From Anaerolineae bacterium (GTDB lineage: Bacteria > Chloroflexota > Anaerolineae > S016-19), in the NCBI GenBank assembly GCA_027016315.1, contig JALWAP010000107.1:15448-79447 (forward strand): 64,000 nucleotides of DNA, in the 5' to 3' direction. This document shows positions 1 to 57,351 of the stretch, in pieces. The notes beneath the pieces are model-generated. The model ran no database searches. It was not told the DNA's origin and saw only the letters and a program-made list of their open reading frames with translations. The first letter of the stretch is position 1. Each line of letters begins with the position of its first letter. The position numbers and the translations under genes are program-made.

Positions 1-1136
1 CGACGAGCTATTTCCTGGCCCCTGAGCGAGAGGGTGATAGAAGAGGTTATCTGTGACTCTTGGGGGAGGTCTTGCTTTTCCAGCCTGCTGCTACCCTGCC
101 AGTTCACAGCAATACGACCAAAGCCTTCGGAACGTCGTTCGCCTACACCATCTTGTTGTAGACGCTCCAGTTCATCAAAAGTGAACGCATCTGCAGCAAA
201 TACAAACACGCTGCCCGCTCTTAAGGCCACAGCCTGAGGTAAAGGAGATCGCCAAGCACGATTAAAGCCTCCAACTACGGTAGTTTCGTAGTAGGCTTCT
301 TGCCAGCTGCGTTTTGGTTTACCAAGGGCTAAAGCCAAATCGTCCGTCCACTGGCCAGTTGCCGGGTGACTGAGAAGAGTATCGCTCAGTAAAGTGAGAA
401 CCAGTTTCCCGCTTTGCCGTTCATCCCCATAGGGGGTAAATTCCCGAAAATTATCGACCAGCCTCACCTCTTCTATTGAGATGGTACCGTATCCCGCGCT
501 ACGAGAGCGCCCAAGATGGGCAATGGGTTCCTGGTTTAGCAAGGCCTGGATTTCCTCCAAAACCTCTTCCTCGCCCAAAATCACCCCCTTTAACCTTTCC
601 CCTGCCGCAATGGCCTCGTAACGAAAAACTGTACTTTCCTCTTTCCCTTTGTGCATACGTTTCGGGCTGGCATTATGGTAGCGGACTTCTCTCTTTGCAC
701 GTACGAAGGTGACAACAACCTCACCTTCGTCCTCCTCCACCCGACAAAAGTCCTGACGCACACGCATGGAGTGCTCCAGGCTTTCCTTGTCTTCTTTCTC
801 CAGCAATGCGAAATCCCAGATGGGGTGTGCTTTGGCCTCAAAATCGCTCTTTTCCATTCGCCAGGAGAGAGGGACAGGCAAAGCGCGTTGACGCCGCCGG
901 TCTTCTGGATAAGCGTGCAGGTAGCAGGTACTGGGCTCCAGGAACAGCCTGCGGAAATGGGGATCCAATGCCGGGGTATCCACAGGGTGACGCTGGAGAT
1001 AACGCCCGGCCAGCAGCCCCCGCATGGCACTGCCAGGGACATACTCTAGGCTGGTCGAACTGTTTTCGCCACCAGGACGATAGGAAGAGAACAACACAGG
1101 TTGCAATGTGCGCAGGGTGTAGGTCAAGGCTTTCAT
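1..1136 (-). CDS. csx10: Type III CRISPR RAMP protein, Csx10-like (Cas5-family subunit typical of subtype III-D); N-terminal 378 codons only, C-terminus lies beyond the left edge
   Basis: Absent from the ORF track because no stop lies in the window. I read the minus frame codon by codon from ATG (1136-1134) to base 1 and found no stop. Product begins MKALTYTLRTLQPVLFSSYRPGGENSSTSLEYVPGSAMRGLLAG. It carries glycine-rich RAMP loops GRSRSAGYG and GERRSEGFGRI. The start overlaps the upstream stop in an ATGA junction (1133-1136). Confidence 0.75.
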   Translation of the reverse strand, partial: MKALTYTLRTLQPVLFSSYRPGGENSSTSLEYVPGSAMRGLLAGRYLQRHPVDTPALDPHFRRLFLEPSTCYLHAYPEDRRRQRALPVPLSWRMEKSDFEAKAHPIWDFALLEKEDKESLEHSMRVRQDFCRVEEDEGEVVVTFVRAKREVRYHNASPKRMHKGKEESTVFRYEAIAAGERLKGVILGEEEVLEEIQALLNQEPIAHLGRSRSAGYGTISIEEVRLVDNFREFTPYGDERQSGKLVLTLLSDTLLSHPATGQWTDDLALALGKPKRSWQEAYYETTVVGGFNRAWRSPLPQAVALRAGSVFVFAADAFTFDELERLQQDGVGERRSEGFGRIAVNWQGSSRLEKQDLPQESQITSSITLSLRGQEIAR

Positions 1137-1774
1137 ATGCCAATCTCCTGATAGAAACGATCGACCCAATGCTGCGTCACGTCTTGTCCGTCGCATAACA
1201 AGCTGGCTTTCAAGCGGCCGAAGCCACGGGTACGGCGTGAACCAGCACGGCGTAGGGCTTTGGTGCATACAGCGAGCAACGAGAGGTCGTCCTTGGTAAG
1301 GTTTTCTTCAAAAAAGAGAGGTGCCTGGAAAGTAGTATTTCGCAGGATAACGCGTATACTGCGCAAAGTATGGGCTTCGGGTACCCCTGTGACTTCCATC
1401 GCCGTTTGGCGACGGATTGCCGTCAAGGACTCCAAGACCTGAGAAGGTGTTAGCTTCCCCTCTTCTACCTGAGAAACCACAAAGGCGTGTAAGTCTTCAG
1501 GTAAGGCTGCATCGCCAACAGAGAGTATGCCTTTCTGCTCCCCAGGCACACCGAACAGCCGAGCCGCTGTACGCTCCCAATGCTCGCTTTGTTCCCCCAG
1601 CGCGGCCAAAGTATCGGCACACGCTTCGGTCAGGAGACCTTTCAATGTCCTTCCTCCCAAGAAAGGGAAACCCCAGCGATCATGTTGGACTTCAATGTCT
1701 ACCAAGCCGCTGACACCGTCACCGCGTGCAAAAACAGCCTCGCTTTTCAGAGTAAACTCGAGAAGGCACGTCAT
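1133..1774 (-). CDS. cas7: Type III CRISPR RAMP backbone subunit (Cas7 / Csm3-Cmr4-like)
   Basis: 213 aa with FLGGRTLKGLL and a C-terminal G-rich loop RRTRGFGRL, as expected for a RAMP. A GAGGAGGGG RBS precedes it. There is a 2-nt gap after the cas10 stop and a 4-nt overlap with csx10, so the genes are operonic. Confidence 0.7.
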   Translation of the reverse strand: MTCLLEFTLKSEAVFARGDGVSGLVDIEVQHDRWGFPFLGGRTLKGLLTEACADTLAALGEQSEHWERTAARLFGVPGEQKGILSVGDAALPEDLHAFVVSQVEEGKLTPSQVLESLTAIRRQTAMEVTGVPEAHTLRSIRVILRNTTFQAPLFFEENLTKDDLSLLAVCTKALRRAGSRRTRGFGRLKASLLCDGQDVTQHWVDRFYQEIGI

Positions 1775-1776
1775 GT

Positions 1777-3393
1777 CTACCCCTCCTCATCCAAGGGAAT
1801 AAAGAAATCCATCGCCTCAATGGCGTCAAAATATGGCGTCCGCTTACCTACCCATCCGCGTTTTTGGACCTCTGGGGAGACGCTTGCCAATGGTGGCAAC
1901 TCAGGAATTCGGTATAGTCTTCTGAAATTTTCCACGGCCTCGGGTGTGCCCTGACGGAGAACCTCTCGCAAAGACTTTACTTTATTTCGCCGATCGCGCC
2001 ATGCATCGTCCGTCTTGAAGGCCAGGGTGATCTCAACAAAATTACGCCAAGTTCGCCACCCATTATACGGGGCGAGCTCGTTCCCCAATGCCACAGGGCG
2101 CATCAGCAGTGTATGTCCACCCGGCAGATGATAGGCGTGACGAATTTCTTCCAAATCGCCAAGCAGGCCAGCACTGGCAAAATGCCAGTCCAAGGCGTTC
2201 AAATCGTGGTCACCATTGCGTTGGTCTTGAATAAACGCTTTCGCCGAGTGGTTGAGGGCCTCGGTCAAAACATACGCCTGCGCAAAAGGATAGTGGGTTT
2301 TCACAATGGCGATGCCCCCACGAGCGTAAATCGGCCATTGGTTTCCTTCTGGGCCGATCAAACGCTGCTGGGTAAGCACTTTAATGTAATGGGCGGCCAA
2401 GCCAAGCCCAAGACGGCCTTCGGTGACAAAAGTAACATCATCGCCGCCATAGACAATAGGTCGAATGGGGAGATATATCTTTCCCTTTTCATCTTTGGGG
2501 GTAATGCCGTATTCCGATTTTAACTTCTCCATATTTACGGCTAAAAGCCGGATTGTGCTCTCTAATGCAACGTGGGCGGCCCTTTTCATACTCTGAGAGA
2601 AAGCCCTCATGGCCTCCACATAGGCACGATTCTTTTCAGAAGCAGCATAATACTGGGAGAGTTTCCGAACTTTCTTTCCCATGCCATTCACGTCCACGTG
2701 AACCACTGCCATATAACTACTCTCGCCCTCGCTGCGTCCCAAGTGATCAAAATCCTTTGGAATGCCAAAGTCACCCCAAGCCCCCTTGAATTCTGTCCAC
2801 AGATACTGATGAGCATCGGAAGCAGCACGAATTTTCGCTTCAGCCTCAGCAGAGAGCAAACTCCCATTCTCCCGGGCAACAGCGGGTAAGCCGGTAAACG
2901 CCCCGGAGGCCGTAACTCCCATACCAAGAAACGGCATATCTGTAGGGCGATTTTGCTTTTGCCGGGCCAGCCTCTCCATAGTGCGTTGCACAACGCCTTC
3001 TTCACCACCAAGGGCGCACTTTCTCCAGTCAAATGGCTCAGAATGAGCCATGACCACTTGTAAGCCAGGCGCTTCACGAAGCGCCCGATGTGTCAACCTT
3101 GCGGCGAACTCACGGGCAAGTGCATCCGACGAAAACAAGACCACAGCGTTGCCACCGCCGAAATAGATTACTTCTGCATCTAATTTGCCCTCTTCTATTC
3201 TTTTGTTAGAGTCAAATATTATCTCTTTATCCTCTAACTTCACATTGCACGCTTTTGGCAATGCTTCGATAACCCAACGGCTTGTCGCTTGCTTTACAAT
3301 CCACGAAGCACCTACGTTCTGACGCAGGTGGTTTGTACCATAAATATAGGGCTGAATACCCGATGTATCGACGATAGTGAGGATGTATTCCAT
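1777..3393 (-). CDS. cas10: Cas10-like cyclase/polymerase subunit lacking an HD nuclease domain (538 aa)
   Basis: Track ORF is 1777-3447. I prefer ATG at 3393 (RBS AAGGAGAGAGCAAATG). The protein opens directly with palm-1 motif IVDTSGIQPYIYG. Palm-2 has an intact VYGGDDVTF, with GGDD encoded at nt 2437-2448. There is no H..HD motif and no room for an HD domain N-terminal of palm 1. No CxxC pairs lie between the palms. Confidence 0.85.
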   Translation of the reverse strand: MEYILTIVDTSGIQPYIYGTNHLRQNVGASWIVKQATSRWVIEALPKACNVKLEDKEIIFDSNKRIEEGKLDAEVIYFGGGNAVVLFSSDALAREFAARLTHRALREAPGLQVVMAHSEPFDWRKCALGGEEGVVQRTMERLARQKQNRPTDMPFLGMGVTASGAFTGLPAVARENGSLLSAEAEAKIRAASDAHQYLWTEFKGAWGDFGIPKDFDHLGRSEGESSYMAVVHVDVNGMGKKVRKLSQYYAASEKNRAYVEAMRAFSQSMKRAAHVALESTIRLLAVNMEKLKSEYGITPKDEKGKIYLPIRPIVYGGDDVTFVTEGRLGLGLAAHYIKVLTQQRLIGPEGNQWPIYARGGIAIVKTHYPFAQAYVLTEALNHSAKAFIQDQRNGDHDLNALDWHFASAGLLGDLEEIRHAYHLPGGHTLLMRPVALGNELAPYNGWRTWRNFVEITLAFKTDDAWRDRRNKVKSLREVLRQGTPEAVENFRRLYRIPELPPLASVSPEVQKRGWVGKRTPYFDAIEAMDFFIPLDEEG

Positions 3394-3419
3394 TTGCTCT
3401 CTCCTTAATACTGCAAAAT

Positions 3420-4652
3420 TCACATATGGGCCGATTTGCGGATCCACGCCTTGAGATACTCGGCCAACTCTGGTAACTCCTTAGGGCCAAAAGCCTTCAC
3501 ATGCCCCTCCGTTAACCAATCCTCATCAACTTCGCGCTCGATTTTAGCAGGGTCATCATACATTGAGACCAAAGCTGTATGGGCTTCATCCCCTCCCATC
3601 TGGTGGGAGCGCAGATACGCTTCAAACAATTTACTCTTACACAAAGACTTCCTGCCGTCGGTAGTGCAAGAGACTGCAAACAATTGGTATCCTCTTAAAG
3701 CCGCTACATCGAACTCAAAATGTTTATCCGCCTCCGAGGGAGTCTCAATGTTCATTCCCACCTCGTGCAAATCAACCTCTGAGGCAATGCGCTGGAAGGA
3801 CATCAAGACATAATGCTCCAGCCATTTGCCTGCCAGCCACTCAGCCAAGTGCTCGACGTTCCACTTTTTGTGGCCAACCCGAGACCTCAGACCATCTTCC
3901 AAGTCACCTAAAGACAAAGCCGTAGACATCCCAAAAGCCTGAAATACTCGTCCGGGCGGCCCCGATGAGGGTAAAGGCACCTCTCTCAAATCCCTCTTAC
4001 TCTTAAACTTGATGAATCTCGGGGGCCGTCTTAGATTTTGAGCACACCACTCGCGCCACTTTTCTCGTGAAATTCCGTCAGCGTGAATTTCAACCAGCAC
4101 CTTAATGACTTCAGGAAACCACACTTCAGCCGCAGGCTCTTTTTTGAGAGTGCGACCATGTAACTGCATCAAGGTCCGAAGGGGTAAACGGCAATCTGTC
4201 CCCACTTTGCGAACGTGAGTAGACCCATCAAGTTGCTCAATCCTCATTGCCAATTCCCTAGCATCCAGGTAACTGAATACGGCGTCGGAGCGCTTATCTG
4301 CAACAGCCCGATAAGCGTGAACAGCCATCGCTTTGGTGCCCCCCGTGTAATGCAAACCTATACTTCCTCTATCAGCAAACTCTTGGACCAGATCACCAAC
4401 CGCTTTGTAAATTCGTGAAGCATCTGTCCAATGAATTTCCCGCGGGGCAGGGACTTTCCATTTTTGGGCGCTCTGTTCAAAAACTTGCTTCAATCGCTCA
4501 GCGATCGCATAAGTATCTGCCGTAGCCAATAAAACGATAGTGCCCTCTGGTTTGGTGAGTAAACATCCGGCTACATAATTCGGCAGCGGATTCGTACCAA
4601 CTAGCAAGAACAGCACATCCGTCTGATATGCTTTCCACCGTTCACTTGGCAT
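3420..4652 (-). CDS. CARF domain + PD-(D/E)xK-fold protein, Can2/Card1-like cOA-sensing effector (catalytic ExK position substituted)
   Basis: Track ORF is 3420-4688. ATG at 4652 has a GGGAGGGG RBS, giving 410 aa. N-terminal CARF-type motifs are LFLLVGTNPLPN and LHYTGGTKAM. The C-terminal nuclease-fold motifs are GKWLEHYV, FEFD(315)V and then LFAVSCTT. Where relatives read I-E-C-K-T (from memory), this protein reads S328-C-T330 (nt 3663-3671). Confidence 0.75.
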   Translation of the reverse strand: MPSERWKAYQTDVLFLLVGTNPLPNYVAGCLLTKPEGTIVLLATADTYAIAERLKQVFEQSAQKWKVPAPREIHWTDASRIYKAVGDLVQEFADRGSIGLHYTGGTKAMAVHAYRAVADKRSDAVFSYLDARELAMRIEQLDGSTHVRKVGTDCRLPLRTLMQLHGRTLKKEPAAEVWFPEVIKVLVEIHADGISREKWREWCAQNLRRPPRFIKFKSKRDLREVPLPSSGPPGRVFQAFGMSTALSLGDLEDGLRSRVGHKKWNVEHLAEWLAGKWLEHYVLMSFQRIASEVDLHEVGMNIETPSEADKHFEFDVAALRGYQLFAVSCTTDGRKSLCKSKLFEAYLRSHQMGGDEAHTALVSMYDDPAKIEREVDEDWLTEGHVKAFGPKELPELAEYLKAWIRKSAHM

Positions 4653-4727
4653 AAGCCTTTCCCCTCCCTGCGTCTTATAATACTTCACTCTCCACCTTTT
4701 TACATCAGAACAACCTCTGAAATCCCC

Positions 4728-5609
4728 CTACTTTTCCCCAAACCACCTCCTCATCACCGGCAGGCAGGGGGCGAAATGCTCCCGGACGAAGTGATAGCTG
4801 ATGTACTCATCAGGCTCCAGGCCCCACGCGTTCCGGCATTCGTCCAGGATCGGGGTCTTGTGAGAGTCCACCGTCTTCAGCGTGATCACCAGCTTCTCGG
4901 CCACCTCCTGCGGTGTCAGGCCTTCGGCAAGCGCAATCAGCGTCTCTCGCTGGCGGGGCGTCAGCCGCTCCCACACCTGCCTGCACCGCTGGATGCTCAT
5001 GGCGTCCAGCATACGGGTGTAGGAAGAAAGAGCCTCCGATGGAGAAACCCCGGCCAGCATCCGGAGCGTGGGGAAATACGCCCCCCACGGCGCCATCGGT
5101 ATCTGGATCAGGCGAACGTTTTCCCCTGTAGGGTCGTGCAATATCGCACCATCCCGGGCGCGTTCCAGAAAATCCGCCTCCGTGAACATATGCCACGCCC
5201 TGTCCTGATGCCCGAACATCAACATCGCCGCAGAAAGCGCCATGAACCCGATCATCCTACGCCCACCTGCCAGCACCAGGTGCAGGCTCCGCTCCTCGTC
5301 CTTCAGGCTCCTGACCAGATTCCACACGTCCATCCAGACCGCTTCTGCGTCCGCCTCCGTCCTCACATCGCGGAGCGGCTCGCCCGAAGGTCTGCGCAGC
5401 AGGTGCCTTCGGAACCGGACCTTCCTGCCAGCGTAGGAACCTCCTGCGAACTCCCGCGCCAACTGAGAAAGCGCCCTGTTCACCCTGACATCCTCCGGCG
5501 ACAGATGCAGCACCACCACCTCGTCCACGCCATCGTCGAGCAGCAAATCGGCGGCGAAAGTCACCACCTGCGCCTGCCCGCCCATCGTAACCACCAGAGT
5601 TTTTCCCAC
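4728..5609 (-). CDS. CARF-like sensor domain fused to a C-terminal LuxR/GerE-type HTH (putative cOA-responsive transcription regulator)
   Basis: GTG start with a GGGGGAGAA RBS. N-terminal motifs LVVTMGGQAQVVTFAADLL and LVLAGGRRMIGF resemble the NE0113-type CRISPR-associated Rossmann (CARF) family, recalled from memory. The C-terminus LTPRQRETLIALAEGLTPQEVAEKLVITLKTVDSHKTPIL is a canonical LuxR-family HTH. It is the first gene of the minus-strand cas operon. Confidence 0.75.
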   Translation of the reverse strand: MGKTLVVTMGGQAQVVTFAADLLLDDGVDEVVVLHLSPEDVRVNRALSQLAREFAGGSYAGRKVRFRRHLLRRPSGEPLRDVRTEADAEAVWMDVWNLVRSLKDEERSLHLVLAGGRRMIGFMALSAAMLMFGHQDRAWHMFTEADFLERARDGAILHDPTGENVRLIQIPMAPWGAYFPTLRMLAGVSPSEALSSYTRMLDAMSIQRCRQVWERLTPRQRETLIALAEGLTPQEVAEKLVITLKTVDSHKTPILDECRNAWGLEPDEYISYHFVREHFAPCLPVMRRWFGEK

Positions 5610-5624
5610 ATTCTCCCCCGAATA

Positions 5625-5640
5625 TCAGAGATTTCTCCGA
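5625..5640. promoter_or_regulatory. Imperfect 16-bp inverted repeat in the divergent control region (candidate operator)
   Basis: TCAGAGATTTCTCCGA matches its own reverse complement at 12 of 16 positions (half-sites GAGA / TCTC). It lies 16-31 nt upstream of the CARF-LuxR GTG start and about 50 nt upstream of the AAA-Csx3 ATG. Confidence 0.25.
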
Positions 5641-5691
5641 TGCAAACCCCGCCTTTCTGAGTTAAACTTGTACCGAGAGGAGCGAAAGACC

Positions 5692-6798
5692 ATGTCCGAA
5701 TTTCCGGCCATCCTCATCGGCGGCCCGCCCCACAGCGGGAAATCGGTGCTGGCGTACCACCTGACCCGCAGACTCCGCCAGCTCCGGGTGGATCACTACG
5801 TCCTCCGGGCCTACCCCGACGGAGAAGGCGACTGGAGCTACGAAGCCGACCAGAACCTGGTCCGCGCCATCAGAATCAAAGGCATCGGCGACGACAGATG
5901 GGTCGCCAGGATACGCCGCGACATCGCCCGAAGGCACCTGCCGCTCATCGTGGACGTGGGCGGCAAACCCACCCCGTCCCAGGAAACCATCTTCGACGAA
6001 TGCACCCACGCCATCCTCCTCTGGCCCGACGAGATCGCCCATCAGGAGTGGATCTCCCGCATGGAACGCCACGGCCTGCCGATCATCGCCGACCTGCACT
6101 CATCCCTCAATGGCACCGACGAAATCGCCTCCACGGGACCGGTGGTACGGGGCACCATATCCGGGCTGGACAGAACCAACCCGAAGCTCGGACCGGCGTT
6201 CGACGCCGTGTTCGAAAAAGTTGCCGGACTCTTCGCCACCGACAGGGAAGCCCTGCGCCGGAAGCACATCCTGGAAGCTCCGGTGGACCTGGCGATAGAC
6301 ATCGAACGACTCGCCTACACCCTGAAAGTCCCCGGCAACCCACCCCGATGGCGTCCGGAGGACATTCCGGCGCTCATAGACTACCTGCCGGAGCACAAGC
6401 CGCTGGGAGTGTACGGCAGGGCCCCTTGCTGGATATACTCGGCGCTGGCGGCCTATTCGCTTCCCGCCGAATTCTGGCAGTTCGACCCAAGGTACGGGTG
6501 GATGAAGCCGCCGACACTCCGCATTTCTGGGAAGTGGAACGATGCTCCGTGGACTGTGATGTATTCCCAGGAAGGTAAAGTTATTCGCCTGTATTTTGCT
6601 CTAAGGCACCACTACGTGGACCCGATAGACGCTGGAGGGCAACCTGTACCAAAAGTCGCTCCCGAACGCTCAGTCATCCTGGAAGGCAAACTCCCTCTGT
6701 GGCTTTTCACGGCTTTGACCAGAACTTACGCTCCGTATCATGCAGTGTTCGTATCTCAACCCCAGCTTTCGGACAAGCCGGTAAAAGTCTCTAAATGA
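5692..6798 (+). CDS. csx3: P-loop NTPase fused to two tandem Csx3 (Crn3 ring-nuclease-type) modules
   Basis: Track ORF starts at TTG 5668. ATG 5692 has a GAGGAG RBS, giving 368 aa. Walker A is ILIGGPPHSGKS and Walker B-like is PLIVDVGG. Module A (about aa 198-275) reads LGVYGRAPCWIYSALAAYS..FWQFDPRYGW. Module B (about aa 286-365) reads VILEGKLPLWLFTALTRTYAPYHAVFVSQPQL. Both mirror the A. fulgidus Csx3 core VVISGRGPIWLHCFLAHKYHH..VAVYDPRLG, recalled from memory. Confidence 0.8.
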   Translation: MSEFPAILIGGPPHSGKSVLAYHLTRRLRQLRVDHYVLRAYPDGEGDWSYEADQNLVRAIRIKGIGDDRWVARIRRDIARRHLPLIVDVGGKPTPSQETIFDECTHAILLWPDEIAHQEWISRMERHGLPIIADLHSSLNGTDEIASTGPVVRGTISGLDRTNPKLGPAFDAVFEKVAGLFATDREALRRKHILEAPVDLAIDIERLAYTLKVPGNPPRWRPEDIPALIDYLPEHKPLGVYGRAPCWIYSALAAYSLPAEFWQFDPRYGWMKPPTLRISGKWNDAPWTVMYSQEGKVIRLYFALRHHYVDPIDAGGQPVPKVAPERSVILEGKLPLWLFTALTRTYAPYHAVFVSQPQLSDKPVKVSK

Positions 6799-13746: not shown

Positions 13747-15750
13747 TTACTTGACGTGGAAGTTGAACATCACGTCGGTGCGGACGACCTCGGGCTGCCC
13801 CTTGTACAAGCGGAACTTGCCGTTCGGCTTGTCCGTAGGCTTGCAGGTGAAGTCCTTGGTGTCCTGGTTGTAGGTGCAGAGCTCGCCGACCATAGGATCG
13901 ACCTGGCTCACATACTGGAACGGAACAGCGATGAAGTCGGCATCGCCGGCCTTGAACATGGCGAAGCGGGTGCCCCACTCCTTCACGTTCTTGATCACGA
14001 CGCTCGAGAGTTTGGCAGGACCGCTGGGGCCGCCATCCCAAGCCGGCTTCGTCCGCCAGTATCCATCGAACCTCTTGAGGACAAGCTCCGTCCCCTTGGT
14101 CCAGTGATCCAGCATGAACGGGCCAGTCCCGTTCTCCTTGTCGGTGAACGGATCGTCCTCAGACGACACACCGTAGTACTTCGTCCAGGTATCGCAGGTG
14201 CCGTCCCAGCCGCCGTTCTTGATGACCCACTTCTTGTCCATCACAGAGCCCCAGCTCTGAGCGATGGTCGCCAGGAACGGGCCCCAAGGCTGAGCCAGCT
14301 TCATGGTCACGGTGCCCTTCTCGTTGTCGAAGGTGATGGCGTCCATGACCTTCTGGCAGGCTGCCTTCAGCTTGGCAGGATCGGCCTTCTGCAATTTCTC
14401 GGTGTCGCCTTCCAGATCGGGGTTGATCAGGTCGGCGATGTCGTACTTGCCAACGCCGAAGAACGGCTCGGTCAGCAACCACTGCGGCGAGTCAGGCCCG
14501 CCCTGCAGCAGACCACGGCGGAACGAGTAGGCAACATCCTCGGCCGTCATCTCGTCGCCGTTGTGGAACTTCACACCCTTGCGGATGTAGAAGGTGTAGG
14601 TCTTGCCATCAGGCGAGATCTCCCACTTGGTGGCCAGCTGAGGCACGAACTTCGTAGGATCGTTCTTCTTGTAGGTGATCAGGGTTTCGTAGGTGTTGTC
14701 GATGATCTCGGCGCCAGCCGTCTCGTAGCAGAGGGCCGGATCAAGTGTCTCAGGATCACCGATAGTCGCCACGACGAAGGTGTCAGGGTTCTTTGCGGTC
14801 TTGTCCTTGCTGTAGGCATAGTAGTAGCCGCCAGGATAGACCGGGTTGTAGTACCACCCTTTCACCCAGCGCTGCTCATAGTGTCGACCGGTGGGAACGG
14901 CACCGCGAATAGCGATAGCATACTCGTAGTCGAGCTTGGTGAGCTCCTTGTAGATCTCCGCACGCTTGGCAGGATCGGTCTCGGAAACACCCTCGTCGAC
15001 CAGCTTCTTGAACTTAGCGACCATGTCCTTCGGCAGGTTCTGCCGGCGGGCGTAGGTGCCGATCATGAACGGCTGAGCCCAGTTGTGCGGGTCATGGATG
15101 TCCTCGAGCCACCCGCTTACGAAGATCGGGAGCTTGCCGGAGCGGATGTTCCGCAGGAACGTAGGCCACGGCAGAGCGATGATGGAAATCTGGAATTTGT
15201 CGTTGACCTGGGCAACGTTCTGCTGCAGGATCTCCGCAATGGTCCGGCGGGTGTCGTTGCCGGTGTTGTAAGCGATGGTGAAGCGGAAGCCCTTCTCCCA
15301 GACCTTGCCGCCCCAGGCTTTCTTGAACTCCTCCTCACATTTCTTGGGATCGTAGCTGTAGTGAGGAGCATTCGGGTCGTAGCCCAGCATTCCAGGGATC
15401 AGCGGGCCATAGCACTGGACGGCCTCACCATGGAGCGCTTCCTTGATGTAGGTATCCCAGTCGAAGCAGTAGTTGAATGCTTTCCTGACATGGATGTCGC
15501 TGAAGAAGTCAGGCGGGATACCGTTCCCGTCCAGCTTGCCGCTCCCGATAAACGGATTGCTCACCGGCGTCGGGGTGATCACCTTCTCTACGACCTTGGT
15601 CTTCTCGATGACCTTGGTCTGAACGACTTTCTTCTCAACGATCTTGGTCTGAACGACCACTTTCGGTGTGGGCTTGGCGCATGCCGCAGCAATAAAGCTG
15701 ACGATCAGCAGCAAGCTCAGCACCAGCATGAACTTCTTGTTACGCCACAT
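13747..15750 (-). CDS. ABC substrate-binding lipoprotein, family 5 (peptide/nickel type)
   Basis: The signal peptide plus lipobox is LLLIVSFIAAAC. A repetitive linker VVQTKIVEKKVVQTKVIEKTKVVEKV follows. The body is family-5 SBP-like (TFYIRKGVKFHNGDEMTAEDVAYSF). Confidence 0.9.
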   Translation of the reverse strand: MWRNKKFMLVLSLLLIVSFIAAACAKPTPKVVVQTKIVEKKVVQTKVIEKTKVVEKVITPTPVSNPFIGSGKLDGNGIPPDFFSDIHVRKAFNYCFDWDTYIKEALHGEAVQCYGPLIPGMLGYDPNAPHYSYDPKKCEEEFKKAWGGKVWEKGFRFTIAYNTGNDTRRTIAEILQQNVAQVNDKFQISIIALPWPTFLRNIRSGKLPIFVSGWLEDIHDPHNWAQPFMIGTYARRQNLPKDMVAKFKKLVDEGVSETDPAKRAEIYKELTKLDYEYAIAIRGAVPTGRHYEQRWVKGWYYNPVYPGGYYYAYSKDKTAKNPDTFVVATIGDPETLDPALCYETAGAEIIDNTYETLITYKKNDPTKFVPQLATKWEISPDGKTYTFYIRKGVKFHNGDEMTAEDVAYSFRRGLLQGGPDSPQWLLTEPFFGVGKYDIADLINPDLEGDTEKLQKADPAKLKAACQKVMDAITFDNEKGTVTMKLAQPWGPFLATIAQSWGSVMDKKWVIKNGGWDGTCDTWTKYYGVSSEDDPFTDKENGTGPFMLDHWTKGTELVLKRFDGYWRTKPAWDGGPSGPAKLSSVVIKNVKEWGTRFAMFKAGDADFIAVPFQYVSQVDPMVGELCTYNQDTKDFTCKPTDKPNGKFRLYKGQPEVVRTDVMFNFHVK

Positions 15751-56970: not shown

Positions 56971-57351
56971 GCTGGGGGTTGCTCCCCCGTTTTGGTCGAG
57001 TCAGGCAACTCGACCTACAGGTATTCTGTAGGGCGAGCCGTCTGGCTCGCCCTGTCGAGCTAACAGCTTGACCTACAACCACGCAGAGGCGCGCCCACCG
57101 CTTTGGTCGAGTCAGGCGACTCGACCTACACGTGCTTTTCGGTCGAGTCAGACGACTTGACCTACGGCGTGCTTTGTAGTGGCGAGCCGTCTGGCTCGCC
57201 ATGTCGAGCTGACAGCTCGACCTACGACCACGCAGAGCGCGCTCCCCCACTTTGGTCGAGTCAGGCGACTCGACCTACACGTGCTCTTCGGTCGAGCCAG
57301 GCGACTCGACCGACGGCGTGCTTTGTAGTGGCGAGCCGTGTGGCTCGGGGC
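56971..57351. repeat. Tandem array (about 2.5 copies of a roughly 148-bp unit) of composite palindromic (REP/BIME-like) elements
   Basis: Unit 57102-57249 is repeated from 57250 as a truncated copy. A shorter copy at 56991-57101 lacks the second hairpin. Each full unit holds four different hairpins: GGTCGAGTCAGGCGACTCGACC, GGTCGAGTCAGACGACTTGACC, GGCGAGCCGTCTGGCTCGCC and GTCGAGCTGACAGCTCGAC. Confidence 0.85.

Follow-up and report, generated by a model that had tools for sequence, protein, structure and literature searches.

The subject of this analysis is a gene at positions 4728..5609 (minus strand) of a 64,000-nucleotide stretch, hereafter the window, of contig JALWAP010000107.1 from an Anaerolineae bacterium, where a type III CRISPR effector operon lies beside a divergently transcribed gene encoding an AAA-Csx3 protein. 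The product, a protein of 293 aa referred to here as CARF-LuxR, joins an N-terminal CARF (CRISPR-associated Rossmann fold) domain to a C-terminal helix-turn-helix (HTH) of the LuxR/GerE type, and is best classed as an uncharacterised variety of CARF transcription factor. The reading frame opens with a GTG codon (5609-5607), preceded by the Shine-Dalgarno (SD) sequence GGGGGAG at 5619-5613, and closes with a stop codon at 4730-4728; the GTG at 5609 is supported as the start codon because homologues begin M-x-K-T-L-V-V-T-M-G-G. In this G+C-rich sequence, an open reading frame (ORF) of 294 aa at 4776-5660 (plus strand) lies almost exactly antisense to the CARF-LuxR gene and is most simply regarded as its shadow ORF.

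An earlier note on this DNA had read the N-terminal part of the protein as an NE0113-type CARF domain and the C-terminal part as a LuxR-family HTH, and both assignments hold. The N-terminal part contains the two motifs quoted there, LVVTMGGQAQVVTF and LAGGRRMIGF, and the C-terminal part contains LTPRQRETLIALAEGLTPQEVAEKLVITLKTVDSHK. In Pfam, Cas_NE0113 (PF09623) matches residues 14-200 (E=7.2e-30, 104.8 bits against a cut-off of 23) and GerE (PF00196) matches residues 215-255 (E=2.1e-7, 30.9 bits against a cut-off of 23.5). The cas_NE0113 and Csx14 models of NCBIfam match the protein below their cut-offs, and the HTH parts of many NarL-class regulators match it too. Sequence matches in the PDB are limited to residues ~197-260 and correspond to the DNA-binding domains of VraR, LiaR and NarL, those of VraR and LiaR being matched at E=1.5e-10 by the profile of a 50-sequence alignment of the family (alignment A1). 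Searches of the PDB with the full protein, the full profile and the CARF domain only returned HTH relatives of this kind and a marginal match to Sso2081 (E ~0.1).

Structural comparison identifies the N-terminal fold more clearly. The AlphaFold2 model built from alignment A1 reaches a predicted local distance difference test score (pLDDT) of 90.8, compared to 55 for an unusable single-sequence model, and its top 15 Foldseek matches in the PDB are all CARF proteins (Sso2081, Cad1-CARF, Csa3 and Sis0455) with E-values of 3e-6 to 6e-5. The best of these is the ring nuclease Sso2081 Crn1 (E=3e-6; template modelling (TM) score ~0.65, target-normalised), while the highest TM scores, 0.68-0.76, are obtained with Cad1-CARF; the Csa3 structures 2wte, 6wxq and 6w11 are also matched, as are Can2 and Csm6. 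The earlier note had named a non-CARF fold, such as a receiver domain, as what would overturn its reading, and a CheY-like receiver is rejected here. No Response_reg match occurs among the Pfam matches of the protein, the response-regulator models of NCBIfam cover residues ~197-257 only and fall far under their cut-offs, and the full-length response regulators VraR, LiaR and FixJ align through the HTH only, with Foldseek TM scores of 0.2-0.35.

The CARF domain defined by Pfam, AlphaFold2 and Foldseek spans residues ~3-186 (5052..5603, minus strand, as are all parts of this gene). Its motif I, T8-M-G-G-Q12, occupies the loop after β1 and its motif II, G115-G116-R117-R118, follows β4; the two Gly residues of motif II, like D81, are invariant in the family. 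In the secondary structure of the model, a long helix of residues ~190-214 (4968..5042) connects this domain to the HTH, which comprises residues ~215-262 (4824..4967) as judged from the GerE and PDB matches. The recognition helix, I-T-L-K-T-V-D-S-H-K-T, carries L244, K245 and D248 and is long in the model, running from residue 244 to 262. The GerE profile aligns over positions 2-42 of its 57 only, and the place of the canonical fourth GerE helix appears to be taken by a family-specific C-terminal helix of residues ~272-291 (4737..4796), recognized from the model and from the conservation of Y272, F274 and F279. A further segment of the CARF half, H134-x-D136-x-x-W139-H140-x-x-T143 plus H158 (residues 134-172, window 5092-5210), does not vary within the family and lacks an equivalent in the alignment to Sso2081; it could be a second catalytic centre, a lid or a dimer contact.

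The genes surrounding CARF-LuxR form a recognizable signalling locus. Divergent from it lies the gene of the AAA-Csx3 protein (5692..6798, plus strand), with an N-terminal P-loop (GGPPHSGKS; weak Pfam match to AAA_18) and a C-terminal Csx3/Crn3 ring-nuclease domain (Pfam Cas_csx3, E=9e-11). Downstream on the minus strand, the gene at 3420..4652 encodes a CARF domain with a PD-(D/E)xK effector nuclease of the Card1/Can2 type (Pfam Card1_endonuc, E=3e-8), which also matches the TIGR02710 family CRISPR-associated CARF protein of NCBIfam weakly (E=1.7e-4, 20.7 bits, under the cut-off of 83.9 bits). The in-frame ATG at 4652-4650, with the SD sequence GGGAGGGG at 4668-4661, fits better as its start than a GTG at 4688. 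It is followed by a short Cas10 (1777..3447, minus strand; Pfam Cas10-Cmr2_palm2), for which no Pfam match to an HD domain was reported and in which the cyclase motif IVYGGDDVTF is intact (residues ~331-340, GGDD at 334). Two RAMP (Cas7-like) genes (3..1774, minus strand) complete the visible part of what resembles a type III-D effector operon: the first (1133-1774) has a Pfam RAMPs match, and the second (1136 to 3) is cut by the window edge and matches a 505-aa RAMP of a homologous locus, L002, in tblastn (E=3e-64). In L002, csx19 comes next. The gene order including can2 recurs in L002, L015, L046, L058, L059 and L084 among the related loci (designated by L numbers, and their protein clusters by P numbers).

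The CARF-LuxR architecture is not rare, having hundreds of database members, and is widespread in Chloroflexota. A word-indexed protein search with the regulator returned 538 clusters, of which the best 120 were inspected for architecture; these are ~290 aa long and combine PF09623 with PF00196 in 119 cases, with PF09623 alone in one (P0076), and most of those with a source name come from Anaerolineae or Chloroflexi. The window protein has no exact entry in the contig index, where cluster P0001, 98% identical to it, served as its stand-in. Relatives occur in 230 species-representative genomes; the 80 loci retrieved are essentially all from Chloroflexota, among them Chloroflexus islandicus and Roseiflexus. 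With a profile restricted to the CARF domain, 1285 clusters (at 50% identity) were reached, 139 of them with E<=1e-30, and in 55 more distant members PF09623 is found in 55/55 and GerE in 37/55, the rest showing related HTH matches of the σ70-region-4 type. Database labels for the family include 'Csx14', 'CRISPR-associated ring nuclease' and 'histidine kinase', the last of which is a misannotation, and the ring nuclease label is applied although the canonical catalytic Lys and Ser are missing from the family. Clusters P0014, P0021, P0046, P0057, P0075 and P0076 are among the entries where a name of either kind ('histidine kinase' or 'CRISPR-associated ring nuclease') misleads.

Gene order is strongly conserved, and the linkage to CRISPR loci that the earlier note had staked its reading on is found in other genomes. 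By precomputed Pfam annotation, the loci run from AAA-Csx3 (divergent) through CARF-LuxR to Cas10 and RAMPs, and then to markers of type III-D (Csx19) or III-B (Cmr2_N, Cmr3, Cmr5). A Csx3-AAA homologue is encoded in 83/83 non-redundant loci and lies head-to-head directly upstream of the regulator in 80/83. The first gene downstream, scored in 54 loci, encodes Cas10 in 28 (16 with Csm1_B and 5 with Cmr2_N), Card1/Can2 in 7, a RAMP in 5 and Cas6 in 4. The regulator gene thus precedes genes of type III-A, III-B or III-D, and these neighbours tie the architecture firmly to type III loci of several subtypes. In most relatives (L003, L014, L015, L023, L024, L025, L041, L052 and others), the start codons of the divergent csx3-AAA and CARF-LuxR genes are just 14-60 bp apart, and such spacers contain little beyond two back-to-back SD sequences; both promoters must therefore lie within the neighbour's coding region, with the 5' ends overlapping as antisense transcripts. 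The strict pairing with AAA-Csx3 is confined to the close family, because a distant CARF-HTH relative (P0250, 275 aa; L087 8001-8828), convergent to a complete type III-A operon (Csm1-Csm5 plus a Csm6-like gene), has no adjacent csx3-AAA. Other loci carry further signalling or regulatory genes. A second Cas_NE0113 CARF protein of 373 aa, cut by the locus end, is the last product of the type III-D operon in L003 (20536-20882), so that one locus can carry two NE0113-type CARF proteins differing in their C-terminal parts. Genes for WYL/WCX-domain regulators lie just past csx3-AAA in L003 (7812-8783), L005 (5387-6430, adjoining a Cas3-like helicase), L034 (873-1910), L064 (215-1255) and L065 (7474-8436), where type III may have a second, independent regulator.

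Comparison of the intergenic regions between csx3 and the CARF-LuxR gene in the closest relatives of the window brought out the sequence ATC(A/G)GAGA-AA-TCTCTGAT, and a 16-bp palindrome, TCAGAG-N4-CTCTGA, recurs in most loci just past the stop codon of the regulator gene. A scan of 1.06 Mb allowing two mismatches or fewer gave 88 matches, of which 62 lie 0-250 bp past the stop, in 47/81 loci; 6 more fall in the 150 bp upstream of the start codon, and 20 lie elsewhere. With the foreground set at 0-300 bp past the stop, 26 matches fall outside it, a background rate that predicts ~0.5 within. A second, weaker copy (5/12 mismatches or fewer) follows +21 to +23 bp downstream in 46/62 loci, compared to ~1.3% of control offsets, and after the promoter-proximal copy comes TG or TTGAC. 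Beyond it a TAnnnT hexamer starts 22 nt after the end of the proximal copy in 46/61 loci (23 nt in 8, 24 nt in 5 and 21 nt in 2). If this hexamer is taken as positions -12 to -7 of a promoter, the centres of the two sites fall at -42.5 and -64.5, and the proximal one ends at the first base of the -35 hexamer. A site centred at -42.5 resembles the lux box, a geometry shared by class II activators such as LuxR.

Two such sites flank the regulator gene of the window. Candidate site 2 (4705..4720), reading TCAGAGGTTGTTCTGA on the minus strand with one mismatch, starts 8 nt past the regulator stop in a position conserved across the family; a candidate -10 box, TATTAT (4677..4682, minus strand), follows after 22 nt and would place the transcription start of can2-cas10 at ~4670, with site 2 centred at about -42.5. 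The regulator had been placed in the earlier note as the first gene of the cas operon, a description that needs revision: in the window, as in most relatives, this conserved operator and -10 box (4682-4677) separate its stop codon from the next gene, so the cas genes have their own regulated promoter, and CARF-LuxR is a separate regulator gene upstream of it, not merely the first cistron. Candidate site 1 (5625..5640), TCAGAGATTTCTCCGA, likewise has one mismatch to TCAGAG-N4-CTCTGA and lies 15 nt upstream of the regulator GTG. It is directly followed by TG in the direction of csx3-AAA, and a candidate -10 box, TAAACT (5663..5668, plus strand), stands 22 nt away; the transcription start inferred from it, at ~5675, would centre site 1 at about -42.5 ahead of the csx3-AAA SD sequence GAGAGGAG (5675-5682) and ATG (5692). 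The arrangement of site 1, 22 nt and TAnnnT toward csx3-AAA is found in 6/6 loci of the window clade (the window, L001, L002, L006, L007 and L008). In L006 a 469-bp insertion parts site 1 from the regulator gene and not from the csx3 promoter, so this insertion and the conserved spacing assign site 1 to the csx3-AAA promoter, although it may additionally autoregulate the CARF-LuxR gene. The stretch 5610-5691 that had been proposed for footprinting covers only one of the two sites.

Loci without the TCAGAG type (type A) commonly have one of two other palindromes in the same position, which keep the tandem arrangement and the spacing to the -10 box: TTGGAA-N4-TTCCAA (type B) or TCAGCA-N4-TGCTGA (type C). 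The palindrome type and the recognition helix covary. Typical of the 47 type A loci is (I)(T/S)LKTVD(S/T)HKT, with L244, K245 and D248, whereas all 13/13 type B loci encode VTV(K/R)TVHAHKT, with V244 and H248. The 4 type C loci and 3 mixed loci have L(S/N)TVN(T/S)HKT, with S or N at 245 and N248, and two loci with TCATAG-N4-CTATGA have L(T/A)TVNSHKT, with T or A at 245 and N248. Residue 248 presumably corresponds to the Lys of the NarL motif T-V-K-x-H that contacts bases. In a neighbour-joining tree of the CARF domain only, calculated without support values, type B is interleaved with type A: L014 falls in a group with L015, L023 and L070, L042 and L045 form a pair, and L050 stands apart. This branching suggests, from sequence comparison, that operator and helix type were switched several times. 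A single operator consensus for the whole family failed, since ~19/80 loci fit none of types A, B and C. L017, L022, L026 and L036 share the recognition helix L-A-T-V-N and a half-site-like AAATCTCTGATG before a TATGAT box; three of these four fit no palindrome type and L017 is a weak, two-mismatch type C match only. Their csx3/CARF spacers measure 240-260 bp and their first downstream product differs (MVRWRDERDD..DRDWW..). L068, L072 and L075, the sole loci with ~4.3 kb between csx3-AAA and the regulator, have the helix L-A-T-V-H, none of the three operator types, and BTAD/TPR-type genes downstream.

The ligand pocket retains some features of characterised Crn1 ring nucleases and departs from others. 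In the profile alignment to Sso2081, which is marginal (E ~0.1) though anchored on both canonical CARF motifs, T10/S11 correspond to G11/Q12, D75 to the invariant D81, and R105/K106 to R117/R118. Motif II reads GGRR in 45/50 close relatives, with R117 nearly invariant and R118 in the aligned position of the catalytic Lys, which in Crn1 sits at the bottom of the pocket, and the motif I pair is GQ in 43/50 and GG in 5/50, Ser never occurring at the position of S11. Sis0455 needs R105, which D75 holds in place, and K106 for both binding and catalysis and can dispense with S11, whereas Ser and Lys (K169 of Sis0811 and K168 of Sso1393) both matter in Sis0811 and Sso1393 (PMC9638899); SyCsm6 K167A is inactive (PMC9676260). 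Thus, of the residues that define Crn1, the Arg105-Asp75 pair is present here, as R117 and D81, and the catalytic Lys and the motif I Ser/Thr are absent. The phosphate-binding pocket is therefore conserved and the canonical catalytic Lys is not. As Gly-Gln replaces the motif I Ser/Thr and Arg replaces the Lys, the regulator probably senses its ligand rather than efficiently cleaving it, and the protein would be a sensor whose ring-nuclease activity is weak or absent. That Asp81, Arg117 and Arg118 are conserved is consistent with the binding of a cyclic oligoadenylate (cOA) by a homodimer. The ligand is likely cyclic tetraadenylate (cA4), because the neighbouring Cas10 has GGDD and because Can2/Card1-type effectors and Csx3 are reported to be cA4-specific.

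Taken as a whole, CARF-LuxR is predicted to be a dimeric transcription factor of type III CRISPR signalling, the CARF domain of which would sense cOA made by the neighbouring Cas10. Its LuxR/GerE-type HTH would bind the 16-bp palindromes, TCAGAG-N4-CTCTGA in the lineage of the window, placed directly upstream of the -35 region of σ70-type promoters with a good -10 box, centred at about -42.5 and, in most relatives, with the second copy at -64.5. In the window, one site would control the can2-cas10-RAMP effector operon and the other the divergent AAA-Csx3. Activation stimulated by cOA is the most likely mechanism because the geometry matches the one seen when class II activators such as LuxR occupy the lux box; the effector and nuclease genes would then be under positive feedback and, in the window clade, induced Csx3 would add delayed negative feedback. 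The earlier note had suggested cOA-dependent transcriptional feedback on both arms of the locus, an idea that is largely borne out and made sharper by the operators. The two arms themselves are supported, in that putative operators face both csx3-AAA and can2-cas10 in the window clade, whereas dependence on cOA is here, as there, a prediction.

Several observations weigh against this reading. Computation establishes the domain identities, the CARF fold, the synteny, the operator with its fixed geometry relative to the promoter, and the covariation of operator and recognition helix, whereas DNA binding, ligand binding and regulation are all deduced from sequence and a model. The window by itself has 3 palindrome matches with two mismatches or fewer where 3.2 are expected, a chance level, and the operator case accordingly rests on position and conservation across loci. 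The transcription starts are deduced from -10-like hexamers; a generic σ70 promoter scan of 4400-6000 gave nothing, and the terminator-like matches from a scan of the same region fall inside coding sequence. A repeat search of 4600-5800 missed the operator palindromes because of their mismatches. In the ~19/80 loci lacking types A, B and C, sites may differ or be absent, and the covarying groups are partly clades on a tree that has no support values. WYL-domain regulators near some loci could in principle bind the sites. A site abutting the -35 position is, furthermore, compatible with repression, whereby the unliganded protein would block the -35 element and RNA polymerase entry until released by cOA, or cOA would strengthen repression. 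Consistent with such a role, the proximal site ends on the first -35 base and overlaps a good TTGAC element in some loci, tandem sites are common among repressors, site 1 lies between any upstream promoter and the start codon of the regulator, as suits autorepression, and Csa3 is described as a repressor of type I-A interference genes by Shah et al. (PMC6546367). Repression is nonetheless rather unlikely. The -35 hexamers are poor in most loci (e.g., ATGTAA and ATGCAG), repressor sites usually tolerate variable positions, and the rigid -42.5/-64.5 spacing to the -10 box is, by analogy to the lux box, the classical signature of activators that contact RNA polymerase. It is highly improbable that the palindromes are instead RNA elements, such as a terminator or processing hairpin at the 3' end of the regulator mRNA, or the target of another factor such as a WYL protein. 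A palindrome can fold into a stem of 6 bp closed by a 4-nt loop just past the stop codon, and WYL genes do lie near several loci. However, the fold of 4655-4735 is no more stable than that of shuffled sequence (z=-0.45), no terminator-like site is called there and no T-run follows. The sequence is conserved and not its pairing alone, both orientations occur (AAAC or GTTT centres), the distance to the -10 box is fixed at 22 nt, and the element also stands upstream of csx3-AAA, where no gene ends. The hairpin reading is rejected on fold stability, orientation and promoter geometry, while WYL genes are missing from most loci and the palindrome changes together with the recognition-helix residues of the regulator, which points to CARF-LuxR, and no other protein, as the presumed binder.

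The identity and fate of the ligand invite two other readings. The protein might act mainly as a stand-alone ring nuclease that degrades cA4, like the 'large' Crn1 enzymes Sis0811 and Sso1393, with an HTH of structural value. Sso2081 is its closest structural match, the D75 and R105 equivalents are conserved, GGRK is kept in 29/55 of the more distant CARF-HTH relatives, databases name the family 'CRISPR-associated ring nuclease' or 'Csx14', itself a predicted ring nuclease, and the large Crn1 enzymes also join a CARF domain to an HTH without known DNA-binding role. This reading is nevertheless improbable, as an invariant Arg stands here in place of the Lys that Sis0455, Sis0811 and Sso1393 require and Gly-Gln in place of the Thr-Ser of motif I, a dedicated Csx3 ring-nuclease domain is encoded next door in essentially every locus, and conserved operators that covary with the recognition helix show an HTH selected for sequence-specific DNA binding. 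A dual role, in which the regulator slowly destroys its own ligand, is possible. It is about equally improbable that the ligand is another molecule (cA6, cA3, SAM-AMP or a linear product), or that the protein is a constitutive regulator with no ligand. The pocket does depart from characterised cA4 binders in both motifs (Gly-Gln in motif I and Arg-Arg in motif II), there are extra invariant His, Asp and Trp residues, and Cad1-CARF, which is structurally close, can bind cA6 as well as cA4. On the other hand, the locus also encodes a Can2/Card1-type effector and a Csx3 domain, both from families for which cA4 specificity is reported, the phosphate-binding Asp-Arg-basic triad is invariant and Cas10 keeps GGDD. 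On balance, CARF-LuxR is probably a cOA-sensing transcription factor acting on these palindromes, with activation as the most likely effect. A more elaborate version is plausible and put forward tentatively: upon infection, cA4 from Cas10 would convert the protein into a pair of RNA polymerase-recruiting dimers at -42.5 and -64.5 that boosts the effector operon and Can2 and, in the window clade, at the same time induces the AAA-Csx3 that later removes the signal, forming a built-in pulse generator. In this version, a code relating residues 244, 245 and 248 to the half-sites TCAGAG, TTGGAA and TCAGCA would have been rewritten several times along with the operators.

The remainder of the window bears little on this signalling locus. 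An array search found no CRISPR array within the 64 kb, and the array presumably sits past the left window edge. The other genes are ordinary chromosomal ones, including those for an oligopeptide ABC transporter, LarB, a molybdopterin dehydrogenase and a ComEC-like protein. Five copies of a ~39-nt element with the hairpin-forming core GGTCGAGTCAGGCGACTCGACC occur at 56984-57347, partly between ORFs and with a 149-bp super-period (Tandem Repeats Finder score 559); these look like repeats of the repetitive extragenic palindromic (REP) or miniature inverted-repeat transposable element (MITE) type rather than a CRISPR array. Short imperfect tandem repeats with periods of 15, 18 and 30 nt, TCTTCTCGA(C/T)GACCTTGGT..., are found at 15582-15658 within a solute-binding-protein gene (13747-15750, minus strand), where they probably encode a low-complexity linker.

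Functionally, the closest known system is Csa3 from Saccharolobus/Sulfolobus and also Thermus, which likewise combines a CARF domain at its N terminus and a DNA-binding HTH at its C terminus in one chain. Csa3 forms a homodimer, binds cA4 but leaves it uncleaved, and controls CRISPR and cas promoters. Its DNA-binding domain, however, is of the winged-helix/MarR-like kind and it is archaeal and mostly associated with type I-A, whereas CARF-LuxR has a GerE HTH (NarL/FixJ, σ70-region-4 type) and is found in Chloroflexota inside type III; the neighbours met were Cas10, RAMPs, Csx19, Cmr3 and Csm1_B, with no type I-A association like that of Csa3. CARF-LuxR further differs from Csa3 in a CARF domain nearer to those of Sso2081 and Cad1, in its pairing with AAA-Csx3, in putative operators with class II activator geometry and in the family-specific C-terminal helix. 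The small Crn1 enzymes Sso2081 and Sis0455 (CARF_m13, 'Crf5') provide the best structural match to the CARF domain and share with it a motif II of GGR plus a basic residue and the Arg-positioning Asp. The large Crn1 enzymes Sis0811 and Sso1393 (CARF7 + HTH) share the CARF-HTH combination, with an HTH of a different class. CARF-LuxR is set apart from Crn1 in general by Arg for the catalytic Lys and Gly-Gln for Thr-Ser, and by operators that point to a DNA-binding role undescribed for Crn1. With the LuxR/FixJ/NarL family (LuxR, NarL, VraR/LiaR, RcsB and GerE) it has the HTH in common, as well as putative palindromic targets sized for a dimer, but the input is a CARF fold in place of a receiver or autoinducer-binding domain, and the last GerE helix appears to be replaced. 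In Cad1 (CARF-adenosine deaminase) and Cami1/SyCsm6 (CARF-RelE), a CARF domain of the same broad branch also drives a fused non-nuclease output; there this is ATP deamination or ribosome-dependent RNA cleavage, and here it is predicted to be transcription.

Makarova et al. (2014) already predicted that the NE0113 family regulates transcription (PMC4012209). Shah et al. (2019; PMC6546367) listed the AAA-Csx3 partner as accessory cluster 67, 'AAA-Csx3' (Caur_2269), which agrees with the window neighbour in its AAA-then-Csx3 order and in its Chloroflexus-type origin; the searchable text of that paper contains no mention of the CARF-LuxR partner or of regulatory sites. A 2025 nomenclature groups Sso2081 (CARF_m13) with Cad1 as Crf5, with the architectures 'CARF or CARF+ADA' and no HTH fusion (PMC12669027, supplementary table), and a 2022 review names Csa3 as the only experimentally characterised non-nuclease CARF effector. 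In agreement with the earlier note, which knew of no characterised CARF-LuxR combination, no paper on the protein, its operators or its pairing with AAA-Csx3 was found in the searchable literature, where queries combining CARF and LuxR gave only quorum-sensing papers. A systematic blind spot may be recognized in this, as public labels read 'ring nuclease' or 'histidine kinase' and a 2025 ring-nuclease survey left out candidates of >250 aa, a cut-off that would exclude the 293-aa CARF-LuxR protein.

The self-regulation of type III systems and the coupling of the cOA alarm to bacterial transcription are largely unexplored. The CARF-LuxR family would be a bacterial counterpart of Csa3 assembled from other parts, namely a Sso2081/Cad1-like CARF domain and a LuxR HTH. 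The analysis yields defined operators of 16 bp, along with predictions of the transcription starts, of a specificity code and of a two-arm circuit that embraces the effector operon and the ring nuclease. Should the protein prove ligand-dependent, it might be put to use together with its operator as a genetic switch or biosensor that responds to cOA.

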